Source: a virus
Taxonomy: Duplodnaviria > Caudoviricetes
Reading direction: 5' to 3' (one strand)
IMG/VR virus record: IMGVR_UViG_3300011858_000030
Span: 21,695 to 85,694 of that record
DNA length: 64,000 bases
Below the pieces are notes generated by a model. It saw only the letters and a list, made by a program, of their open reading frames with translations, was not told the DNA's origin and made no database searches. A program made the translations under genes and the position numbers. Below are positions 21,672 to 54,683 of this stretch, one piece after another (positions within the stretch are counted from its first letter, which is position 1; each line of letters begins with the position of its first letter).

Positions 21672-21819
21672 CTAGATAAAATTTCTGGTGAAGAACAACC
21701 CTGACATAACCTTTACCGTCGCGATTTTTAACTTCATCGCCTGCTTTTACAGGCCCTCTATGGCTGTGCCTCCAAAAGAGTTTTCCATCCCGATATTCGA
21801 AATAATCACTCCAATTCAT
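21672..21819 (-). pseudogene. HNH endonuclease 5' fragment truncated by the Mu insertion
   Basis: MNWSDYFEYRDGKLFW...KGYVRVVLHQKFYL stops just before the expected HR-xx-W motif (compare YHAHRLAW and VMAHRIVW in the other HNHs here). Confidence 0.8.
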
Positions 21820-50753: not shown

Positions 50754-50827
50754 AATCAACACCATGTTAATTCATGATGTGGATTAAATCAACATTATGG
50801 TGATGGAAAAAATACACATGTTGTTTA
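50754..50827. promoter_or_regulatory. OR operators and pR
   Basis: Repeated AATC(A/C)ACA-N3-TG sites; minus strand TTGATT-17-TAACAT. Confidence 0.75.
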
Positions 50828-50850: not shown

Positions 50851-51570
50851 ATGAGTAGCATTTCTGAAAGAATTAAATTTTTACTGACAAGGGAAGGCTT
50901 GAAACAGCGGGATTTAGCTGAGGCTTTATCGACCAGCCCTCAGACCGTAAACAACTGGATAAAGAGAGACGCGTTAAGTCGTGAGGCTGCGCAACAAATA
51001 TCTGAAAAGTTCGGTTATTCTCTTGACTGGTTATTAAATGGAGATGGCTCTCCAAAGAAAGATCAGGAGAGCAATATCCCGCCAGAGTCTGAGTGGGGAA
51101 CTGTCGATGCCTGGGACAAAAACACACCGCTACCTGCGGACGAGGTTGAAGTGCCTTACCTCAAGGATATTGAATTTGCATGTGGCGATGGCCGCGTTCA
51201 ATGCGAGGATCATAATGGCTTTAAGCTGAGGTTCTCCAAGTCAACACTACGCCGAGTAGGGGCAAACACCGACGGTTCTGGAGTTCTCTGCTTCCCGGCC
51301 ACAGGTGACAGCATGGAGCCGATCATTCCCGATGGCACTACGGTAGCCGTAGACACGAACAACAAGCGCATAGTTGACGGTAAGCTGTATGCCATTGGTC
51401 AGGCAGACGGCGGTAGCGGGCAGCTCAAGCGCATTAAGCAGCTATACCGGAAGCCGGGCGGCAAGCTAATCATTCGCAGCTACAACGGCGACGCATATCC
51501 GGATGAAGAAGCTGACATTGATGATGTTGAGATAATCGGTCGCATATTCTGGTACTCGGTGTTGCTGTAA
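50851..51570 (+). CDS. cI: CI repressor (HTH plus S24 peptidase)
   Basis: N-terminal HTH; ACGDG cleavage-site region, GDSMEP serine and RIKQL lysine; GGAGG RBS. Confidence 0.95.
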   Translation: MSSISERIKFLLTREGLKQRDLAEALSTSPQTVNNWIKRDALSREAAQQISEKFGYSLDWLLNGDGSPKKDQESNIPPESEWGTVDAWDKNTPLPADEVEVPYLKDIEFACGDGRVQCEDHNGFKLRFSKSTLRRVGANTDGSGVLCFPATGDSMEPIIPDGTTVAVDTNNKRIVDGKLYAIGQADGGSGQLKRIKQLYRKPGGKLIIRSYNGDAYPDEEADIDDVEIIGRIFWYSVLL

Positions 51571-51623
51571 AGACGAAGCTGCGACTGGTTTAGCAGGCGC
51601 ACTGAAATTACGCTGAGGGGATA

Positions 51624-52007
51624 ATGGAAGAATCAGATCAGGAAAAACGAGAGCGCGAGCTAATGGAGGTGCTTTGGCGAAAATTTAGAGCGCTATCACC
51701 TGAATTACTGTCTCAATTCCTAGCAGAACGAGGCGTTCCAATCGTCTCATGCCCTATATGTGGCAGTGCAGATATGGCCGTACCACAGGCCAGCGAGCAA
51801 ATTTATGACGGAGATAAGCCGACTGGAGAATGGTTTACGTATGTAAACCCATCAAAAGTAAGCTCATTTGGGTTTGAACCATTACACTCCTTGCTTCAGT
51901 ACAACTACCGCATAATTTGCAAAAATTGCGGATATGAAAACAGATTCTCTGCGCACCCAGTTCTATCGTGGCTGGAGAAGAATGACAAAAAAACTAATGC
52001 CGAGTAG
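51624..52007 (+). CDS. Zn-ribbon hypothetical protein downstream of cI
   Basis: CPICG...CKNCG; GAGGG RBS. Confidence 0.8.
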   Translation: MEESDQEKRERELMEVLWRKFRALSPELLSQFLAERGVPIVSCPICGSADMAVPQASEQIYDGDKPTGEWFTYVNPSKVSSFGFEPLHSLLQYNYRIICKNCGYENRFSAHPVLSWLEKNDKKTNAE

Positions 52008-52010
52008 ACT

Positions 52011-52340
52011 ATGAATCAGCACAAAGAAGATGCAACAGTCGTCTGGGATCGTTTTCCACAACATGGTGGCGGTAGCGGCGGAGGTGGTGAGATGGAAAGT
52101 AGAGTTGCAAGACTGGAATCCGATATTGAGTACATAAAGCGCGATGTATCTGATATTAAATCGGATATTAAGTCTATTGATTCCAGGTTAGCAACAATTG
52201 AAACAGCAATTGGCTCGCTTAAAACCACCATTAAAGCCTCCGCTGTTGTCATCACAGTGGTTTTCTCTTTTTGCGCATATATTTTTGGTAATTATGTAGC
52301 CAAAATACTTGATGCACTAAATGGGTTGGTTCTCAAGTAA
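52011..52340 (+). CDS. Coiled-coil protein with a C-terminal TM helix
   Basis: Gly linker, heptads RVARLESDIEYIKRDVSDIKSDI, TM AVVITVVFSFCAYIFG. Confidence 0.8.
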   Translation: MNQHKEDATVVWDRFPQHGGGSGGGGEMESRVARLESDIEYIKRDVSDIKSDIKSIDSRLATIETAIGSLKTTIKASAVVITVVFSFCAYIFGNYVAKILDALNGLVLK

Positions 52341-52346
52341 CCCCGG

Positions 52347-52368
52347 CCCCGGCATTGCCGGGTTTTTT
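52347..52368 (+). terminator. Terminator closing the cI operon
   Basis: CCCGGC-ATT-GCCGGG-TTTTTT. Confidence 0.75.
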
Positions 52369-52564
52369 AATTTCCTTTCCGCACTATCTCAGCAGCATCC
52401 CTGTTCACGCCCTTCCCTATCACGTTGCCAGTTTCCTTCCGGTACTGTTCAAGTTTTTCAATGATAGCCTCCTGCGTCACAGGCAGATCCGCCAGCGATA
52501 ACTCCATCACCGCGCGCCCGGCGGCATGAGCCATCATGTTCACTTTTTCTTCATCCAAGTCCAT
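52367..52564 (-). CDS. Hypothetical protein, 65 aa
   Basis: GGGAG RBS; convergent on the cI operon. Confidence 0.7.
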   Translation of the reverse strand: MDLDEEKVNMMAHAAGRAVMELSLADLPVTQEAIIEKLEQYRKETGNVIGKGVNRDAAEIVRKGN

Positions 52565-52619
52565 AACCCACTCCCTTTTTGATGTTTTTTGCAGCATATC
52601 ACTTATGCCACCAAAAAAT

Positions 52620-52706
52620 AAATCAACATAAAAATCAACAAGAAACGATTAAATCAACAAAATAAATCCACAGAGTGTTGACCTATAAATCCACATGATG
52701 TTTAAT
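52620..52706 (+). promoter_or_regulatory. OL operators and pL
   Basis: Multiple AAATC(A/C)ACA repeats; TTGACC-17-TTTAAT at 52678-52706. Confidence 0.8.
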
Positions 52707-53007
52707 TACCCCATCGAAACGAAACATCGACAGCTGAGCGAAGTTAGCCAGCGGCGGACAGCAAGTCGCCTGCTTTTTAACAACATACAAAGTCGGAACA
52801 GCACTCGGTAATCCTGTTTAGACCCCAACGTACAAATTCGGCGCAGCACCGGGCGCGATCCGGTCGGTGTGAGGCTACCCCCTCGCGAGAGCGATAAAGG
52901 CGTGGGAACGGGCAACACTGGCGGGATGAGAGGTGCGAAGCGCAAACAGATTTATTCCAGTCCATTCGAAGCTGAGTGGGCTGTGCTGAATCACAAGAGG
53001 ATTTTTT

Positions 53008-53220
53008 ATGACTCAGAAATACATTCCGGCGTGTTTAAGAGACCTTCCTAAGAATCGTCAGAAGCCACGCAAACAGGCGATTAAAGAAGCGCAAGTGGAA
53101 GTTCTGAATAAGGCAATCGCATCGATAAAAGACGATATGCGTGCGTTCAAAACAGAAGAGCAGCGTCGCGGTCATTACCAGGCGATCAGCACACTCTCAC
53201 AGATTCGTGATGAGTTGTAG
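53008..53220 (+). CDS. First pL gene, hypothetical, 70 aa
   Basis: GAGGA RBS. Confidence 0.75.
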   Translation: MTQKYIPACLRDLPKNRQKPRKQAIKEAQVEVLNKAIASIKDDMRAFKTEEQRRGHYQAISTLSQIRDEL

Positions 53221-54025: not shown

Positions 54026-54180
54026 CAGTTACCCACAACGGCAAGCAGTACACCGCCAAAAAGCTCAACGATAACGAGTGGCAGCTGACGTCGGTATCAA
54101 ACCCGCGTGAAAAGTTGGTACTTAACCGCTGGCAGATGCATATGGCTGGCTTACTGGCTCAGGTGGAGGGGAAAAAATGA
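54022..54180 (+). CDS. Small protein, 52 aa (MTVTHNGKQY...), not in the ORF track
   Basis: Read by eye; ATGA overlaps at both ends. Confidence 0.7.
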   Translation: MTVTHNGKQYTAKKLNDNEWQLTSVSNPREKLVLNRWQMHMAGLLAQVEGKK

Positions 54181-54683
54181 TGCGAAAGCACAAGTTGCCA
54201 AGTGCTGAGGAGATAGATTCCTTGCTGGATTACAACCCTGAAACCGGAGTATTTACGTGGAAAGTGACGAAATCAGGATGGGTTGTAAAGGGGCGGCCTG
54301 CTGGTTCAAAAAACAATAATGGCTATCTCCGAGTTGGTATTGGAAGAAGGCACTACTTCCTTTCTCGAATCGCATTTTTCTTATGCACCGGGGAATCACC
54401 TGAAGAAGTAGACCATATCAATGGTGACAGAACAGATAACAGGGCGTGCAACTTAAGAGCCGCAAGCCGTCATGAAAACTGCCTCAATAAGTCGGTAAGA
54501 AGCGACAGCAGGACTGGTGTAAAGGGCGTCTCATGGCGACCGGATGTTAAAAAATGGTCTGCACGATCAACTGATTCATCGGGGAAGAGAGTGTTTTTAG
54601 GTTACTACCGCACCATCAGAGATGCGGTGGCTGTCCTTAATGATTTTCGGAGAGAACAGCATGGTGAGTTTGCAAAAAATTAG
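54177..54683 (+). CDS. HNH-AP2 homing endonuclease
   Basis: LDYNPETGVFTW, VDHINGDRTDNRACNLR and GVKGVSW motifs. Confidence 0.92.
   Translation: MMRKHKLPSAEEIDSLLDYNPETGVFTWKVTKSGWVVKGRPAGSKNNNGYLRVGIGRRHYFLSRIAFFLCTGESPEEVDHINGDRTDNRACNLRAASRHENCLNKSVRSDSRTGVKGVSWRPDVKKWSARSTDSSGKRVFLGYYRTIRDAVAVLNDFRREQHGEFAKN

Follow-up and report, generated by a model that had tools for sequence, protein, structure and literature searches.

A modular gene pair of temperate Enterobacterales phages, encoding a zinc-ribbon protein and a predicted membrane-anchored coiled coil, as a candidate phage-exclusion cassette

Temperate phages keep exclusion genes in the interval between cI and pL and in the neighbourhood of immI, and few of the cargoes carried there are understood. 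The cI-to-pL slot is a hotspot, occupied by rexAB in lambda and by bstA in BTP1 (PMC8585504). Here we consider a stretch of 64,000 nucleotides of viral DNA (Duplodnaviria; Caudoviricetes; IMG/VR record IMGVR_UViG_3300011858_000030, positions 21,695 to 85,694), referred to throughout as 'the window', in which two short genes, A and B, follow the repressor gene. What are these genes, and what might they do for the phages that carry them? A preliminary description, made from the sequence alone, had likened their position to that of rexAB and bstA. The occupancy of the slot by those genes is documented in the paper cited above, and the window pair does sit in the equivalent position. A search of the literature found no paper on the pair. 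Both are real genes and not chance open reading frames, because their homologues and their synteny are conserved.

The layout of the locus is given in Table 1. The repressor gene shares 85-87% nucleotide identity with the cI genes of phi80 and HK225; its longest ORF starts at 50797, and the likely start is the Met codon at 50851, which yields a protein of 239 aa (phi80 cI has 236 aa). A and B are separated by 3 nt (TAG ACT ATG) and lie in one reading frame. The two closely packed ORFs first described on the cI strand hold at the coordinates tabulated, as does the terminator placed after them, an all-GC stem of 6 bp (52348-52362) followed by a T-run (-11.3 kcal/mol). The pair has a GC content of ~43%, vs ~52% in its flanks. 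On the other strand, reading leftward, are cro, cII, and ORFs for a replication-initiator-like protein and a DnaB-type helicase.

Table 1. Features of the repressor operon and its two-gene cassette, in window coordinates
Feature	Position	Strand	Basis
cI-type repressor (HTH + S24 peptidase), phi80/HK225-like	50851..51570	+	Pfam Peptidase_S24 6.9e-16, Phage_CI_repr 1.6e-10
cI-A intergenic spacer, GAGGGG Shine-Dalgarno	51571..51623	+	
ORF A, 127 aa, acidic cytoplasmic zinc-ribbon protein (phrog_4293)	51624..52007	+	Homologues, AF2 model
ORF B, 109 aa	52011-52340	+	phrog_6136 match
ORF B residues 1-18, partner-class-specific N-terminal peptide with F-P-Q-H at its end	52011..52064	+	
ORF B residues 19-26, Gly-rich linker, at which the mosaic gene recombines	52065..52088	+	
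ORF B residues 27-74, helix start (M-E-x-R-V-A-R-L-E-S-D) and heptad coiled coil	52089..52232	+	
ORF B residues 75-109, C-terminal TM helix and conserved 12-residue tail, then stop codon	52233..52340	+	
Intrinsic terminator ending the cI-A-B unit	52348..52368	+	Hairpin prediction

The far end of the slot is marked by repeated sites. The sequence AAATCMACA occurs six times in the window, five times at 52620-52695 and once in the cro-cI interval (50786-50794), a number of matches that was reached or exceeded in none of 100 shuffles. These copies are probably repressor operator half-sites, belonging to OL and OR, and we read 52600-52710 as a putative OL/pL; on this reading the cassette occupies the cI-to-pL slot. 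Beyond the cluster lies an arginine-rich, N-like ORF (53008-53220). Three further features of the region can be recorded. A promoter-like site, TTGACC-17 nt-TTTAAT (52678-52706), is found at the right of the five-copy cluster. The remainder of the cI-to-pL interval is occupied by a 76-aa ORF (52367-52597, minus strand) of phrog_3975, a family of unknown function; it is convergent to A and B, its stop abuts the terminator, HK639 has a copy too, and it is conserved also beside cassettes of another partner class (locus L037). In the presumed pL operon, a 168-aa ORF (54177-54683, plus strand) appears by eye to combine an HNH endonuclease with an AP2-type DNA-binding tail, and so to be homing-endonuclease-like.

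ORF A was at first described as a soluble CxxC...CxxC protein, and this is borne out. Its two zinc knuckles, C43-x-x-C46 and C99-x-x-C102 (51750-51761 and 51918-51929), comprise four cysteines that are invariant across 45 relatives, and it has no TM segment (maximum KD19 1.14). The protein is acidic (pI 5.3; family median 5.4). The AF2 model built from the alignment of these 45 relatives is confident (pLDDT 90.8); it starts with a pair of helices at the N terminus, continues as a long beta zinc ribbon (residues 55-109) and closes with a helix at the C terminus. Within the family, variability is highest in the beta arms between the knuckles, whose spacing ranges from 45 to 69 residues, and an exhaustive HMMER search gathered 58 related clusters, nearly all of them 100-170 aa in length. 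Fold searches with this model, among them Foldseek, which the preliminary description had suggested, returned zinc ribbons of a generic kind only: the best Foldseek E-value in the PDB was 0.12, and the best Z in a VIA-wide search 3.9. The best match in BFVD (E 3e-3) was to an unnamed protein, and ESM Atlas returned only clusters that were unnamed or labelled 'zinc binding'.

ORF B, read from the outset as a Gly linker, heptads and a TM helix, does have these parts. V, I, L or M occupies 14 consecutive a/d positions (residues 28-74), the one hydrophobic segment (residues 74-92) reaches a KD19 of 2.06, and the 12-residue tail behind it is invariant within its C-module type. In the AF2 model, residues 25-108 form a single helix. 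The a/d positions are rich in Ile, which by coiled-coil rules suggests a parallel oligomer, perhaps a trimer. Among all partner classes and C-modules of the wider B family, which we describe below, the most conserved element is the helix start after the Gly linker, R-(V/I/L)-x-(K/R)-(L/I/T)-E, often RVAKLESDV-x-YIK. Its conservation might reflect a role as trigger site for the coiled coil, binding to some common host factor, or simply recombination at this point.

Can the pair be assigned to something known? It is not the 'orphan' that it had been called: A matches phrog_4293 (E 6.3e-22) and B phrog_6136 (E 4.7e-31), both nearly over their full length and both families of unknown function, and the two genes belong to a larger modular family. 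That no named defence family could be given was correct. PADLOC-DB v2 held no match for A, and for B only coiled-coil noise (E>=0.004); scans of both proteins with Pfam, NCBIfam and PADLOC yielded sub-threshold zinc-ribbon or coiled-coil noise only. No homology to RexA or RexB emerged as a significant match in PADLOC or as any match in Pfam or NCBIfam. The Lar restriction-alleviation family was considered and rejected, its scores being below the cut-offs (PF14354, 14.1 vs 28.6 bits; TIGR03655, 19.3 vs 39.6 bits). Ten partner proteins of B, covering all three of the partner classes described below, belonged to no Pfam family.

The one name that databases do offer is 'hemolysin XhlA', the NCBI/PGAP label on relatives of B. 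It would make B an accessory to lysis, aiding a holin or endolysin or setting the time of lysis, as does Bacillus PBSX XhlA, which like B is small and has its coiled coil on the cytoplasmic, N-terminal side of a C-terminal TM helix. Pfam XhlA (PF10779) matches 13 of 22 relatives of B at E<=0.01 (best E 7.7e-6); B itself scores 20.2 bits (E 7e-4), below the gathering cut-off of 34.7 bits. Lysis requires XhlA along with XhlB and XlyA (PMC5589764), but B lies outside the lysis cassette, in the repressor operon. The endolysin and Rz genes of this prophage are at 40987-41855, on the minus strand and 10 kb from the pair, and no context of the cassette that we examined had a holin or endolysin gene as neighbour. 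Moreover, the Gly linker, N-terminal peptide and obligate small partner of B are not known for XhlA. We give a role in lysis very little credence.

A and B go together almost without fail. The preliminary description had proposed co-occurrence elsewhere as a check, and the two do co-occur: a B-family gene is directly downstream, at gaps of -80 to +6 nt, in 69 of 70 A-anchored loci from viral and genome collections, the sole exception having a truncated A, and B directly follows A in all four of the species genomes newly found. The family is sporadic: of 301 genomes sampled from the order, 5 have A and 7 have B. Enterobacter phages ENT1, BHUENT3 and BHUENT6 carry the identical pair, and homologues of A at 36-44% identity, each then followed by a B-type gene, occur in Salmonella phages SPN3UB and 29485 and Klebsiella phage ST101-KPC2phi6.1. 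Cassettes are found in Enterobacter, Salmonella, Klebsiella, Escherichia, Cronobacter, Yersinia, Pectobacterium, Brenneria and other genera, and ENT1, SPN3UB and epsilon34 are isolated phages that have one; a megablast search of 5,426 complete E. coli genomes with the window pair gave no match. No fused A-B protein or longer form of B was found, the search returning one unrelated coiled-coil protein of 532 aa. In a Brenneria locus (L094, 4001-4804), as in the window, A and B share a frame with TAG and one codon between them, and read-through of the TAG would yield a fusion of 238 aa. The common frame is probably incidental, because at other loci the genes overlap out of frame.

When loci are anchored on B instead, at least three unrelated classes of upstream partner appear: zinc ribbons like A, a ~145-aa class and a ~90-aa class. 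Comparison across these classes shows B to be a mosaic gene. The window and Brenneria L094 are similar from 51615 to 52094, that is, over A and B residues 1-28, and unrelated beyond; similarity to three loci of the ~145-aa class (L016, L017 and L037) begins only at 52062-52077 and runs on through the terminator. These limits place the mosaic junction at the Gly linker. There are at least eight C-module types, several of them common to different partner classes, and the same C-module was found with three unrelated partner classes. Among 45 distinct pairs of the zinc-ribbon class, identity in A is correlated with that of the N-peptide (rho 0.51) and much less with that of the C-module (rho 0.15). 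Where A is at least 70% identical, a diverged peptide was seen in 0 of 147 pairs of loci, and an unrelated C-module in 65 of 147. Of 36 distinct N-segments of the zinc-ribbon class, 26 have the motif (F/Y/W)-P-(K/Q/R/W)-(H/Y/...) ahead of the linker; none of 22 from the other two classes has it (Fisher p ~1e-8, phylogeny ignored). From these sequence comparisons, A and the N-peptide of B are inherited as one unit, and the Gly linker is where the coiled-coil/TM half is swapped. Co-inheritance of A and peptide could stem from their adjacency in the DNA alone. In an AF2 model of the A-TAG-B read-through fusion, made with an unpaired alignment, the peptide was modelled at low confidence (pLDDT 50-61) and not seen to dock.

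The closest view of this exchange comes from sister cassettes in an E. coli E2348/69 prophage and in Salmonella phages epsilon34 (gp44/45) and g341c (gp39/40). They resemble the window pair in their slot after cI, in the Gly-linker junction, and in the C-terminal half of B, which is 70-78% identical in amino acids. They differ in the N-peptide of B and in the partner, an unrelated protein of ~145 aa that, unlike A, has no Cys knuckles. Sister cassettes of this class occur in 16 of the 5,426 complete E. coli genomes, as well as in epsilon34 and g341c, and all are annotated as hypothetical. In E. coli E2348/69 (NC_011601.1, 2620339-2621134) and in IMG/VR loci L016-L039, the cassette takes the place that rexAB has in lambda, after some prophage repressors that look, by eye, lambda-cI-like. 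One might generalize, and picture the B family as a universal, plug-and-play membrane scaffold or effector for prophage immunity, in which unrelated small sensors—zinc-ribbon, ~145-aa and ~90-aa—are each recruited by a docking peptide of their own and swapped, by recombination at the Gly linker/helix start, onto a shared tail-anchored coiled-coil output. Such a scheme would make the family a new and modular kind of anti-phage system, distributed over the prophages of Enterobacterales. We regard so broad a scheme as unlikely.

The same modularity bears on whether the two genes form a toxin-antidote, addiction-like pair, in which B would be a small tail-anchored membrane toxin neutralized by A, and which would stabilize the prophage or act as a suicide switch. 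B is indeed small, with a single TM and a helix that appears strongly oligomerizing, and the genes are tightly coupled with A first. The fold of A also weakly recalls the Zn-ribbon N-domain of the antitoxin MqsA, but the Foldseek match is not significant (E 0.47-0.69, probability 0.16-0.18), and A has no HTH or autoregulatory domain in a Pfam scan. Three structurally unrelated classes of partner, joined by way of a swappable peptide, would be unusual for antitoxins, and we consider this explanation improbable.

Where the cassette resides varies with its partner class. Of 26 contexts of the ~145-aa class, 16 have a repressor directly upstream, as do 10 of 60 distinct zinc-ribbon contexts; the other 50 of these 60 are not beside cI. 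Zinc-ribbon cassettes are mostly found upstream of the tape-measure gene, within the tail region of SPN3UB-like phages, and in 7 of 10 sampled tail-region contexts an antirepressor-type gene (ORF6N, KilA-N, Bro-N or P22_AR_N) comes directly before the cassette. In SPN3UB and phage 29485, a scan of the sequence on either side of the pair for moron-style promoters and terminators gave no candidate that exceeded shuffles. As nothing convincing of this kind was seen in the tail-region contexts, expression in the lysogen is plausible in the window but should not be presumed throughout the family. The claim that A and B are co-transcribed with cI thus survives in part: the layout of the window favours it, no terminator being predicted in the 53-nt gap between cI and A, but it cannot be carried over to the whole family, given the 50 contexts that are not beside cI.

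Since the cassette adjoins immunity genes in both kinds of context, after cI in one and after antirepressor-type genes in the other, it might serve the immunity switch, modulating the activity of repressor or antirepressor (by membrane sequestration, for example) and not acting on other phages at all. But a 100%-identical cassette occurs behind at least three unrelated repressor alleles, only 25-28% identical to each other, and so is not matched to one immunity specificity. Both loci, moreover, attract cargo in general; P22 sieA, for instance, adjoins immI. An accessory to the switch is, to our minds, another rather poor prospect.

Cargo need not be aimed at phages, either. The pair could serve lysogenic conversion, affecting the physiology of the host—its envelope, stress response or virulence—in ways unrelated to phages. 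Moron-type slots and low GC would suit such a role, and bstA was first tied to virulence phenotypes (PMC8585504). Against it, neither protein has a signal peptide, effector domain or enzyme domain, both are predicted to face the cytoplasm, and rapid swapping of modules is more typical of conflict systems. We therefore put little weight on host-directed cargo.

Slot, low GC, sporadic distribution and rapid swapping of modules all fit a conflict system, and we rank a membrane-anchored cassette for phage exclusion or abortive infection first. The preference is tentative, drawn from context and architecture and held with somewhat less than even confidence, but it stands above each of the rivals just discussed. 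The nearest precedent is RexA/RexB. As in lambda, where the order is cI-rexA-rexB-timm, A and B lie between cI and pL, on the cI strand, and are closed by a terminator; in both cases there are two genes, with that for the soluble protein first and that for the membrane protein second. The resemblance does not extend to the proteins. There is no sequence similarity (PADLOC), A is a 127-aa zinc ribbon that is not RexA-like, and RexB crosses the membrane several times, unlike B with its one TM helix and long coiled coil.

Other phages offer partial parallels. HK97 gp49/gp48 are also a small soluble protein and a membrane-anchored coiled-coil protein encoded after cI, but they have neither Gly linker nor Zn knuckles. 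Homology was rejected, hhalign giving probabilities of 14.7% for B with its counterpart and 0.2% for A. P22 SieA and HK97 gp15 are small inner-membrane superinfection-exclusion proteins, the products of single genes found beside immI or in tail-gene morons. Their tail-region or immunity-side location is the same as the second context of the A-B cassette. Unlike them, A and B are two genes, and no PHROG match of the pair is annotated as exclusion.

If A and B are an exclusion system, how might they work? We picture a two-part accessory cassette, a swappable cargo of temperate Enterobacterales phages. In the window, the maintenance promoter of cI would probably drive A and B as well, and translation of B would be coupled to that of A. 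B would be a tail-anchored protein of the inner membrane. From its single C-terminal TM helix, a parallel coiled-coil rod of ~47 residues would project into the cytoplasm, with the flexible Gly linker and the 18-residue peptide at the tip of the rod. The peptide, we infer, docks the acidic zinc-ribbon protein A and so keeps it by the membrane, on the cytoplasmic side, where A would serve as the subunit for specificity or sensing. The complex may then exclude other phages by stopping infection at an early step at the membrane. Alternatively, B might form an oligomeric bundle of helices that produces a membrane lesion and so aborts the infection, as proposed for RexA/RexB.

We consider the modularity of the cassette, namely the mosaic structure of B and a peptide linked to the partner, to be the main new result. 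It amounts to an unusual genetic design, in which a sensor gene and a putative docking peptide are exchanged as a unit onto a shared membrane rod. If the anti-phage role is true, A and B would represent a new family of systems and an example of modular sensor swapping, and they could bear on predictions of host range for phage therapy of Enterobacter and Klebsiella.
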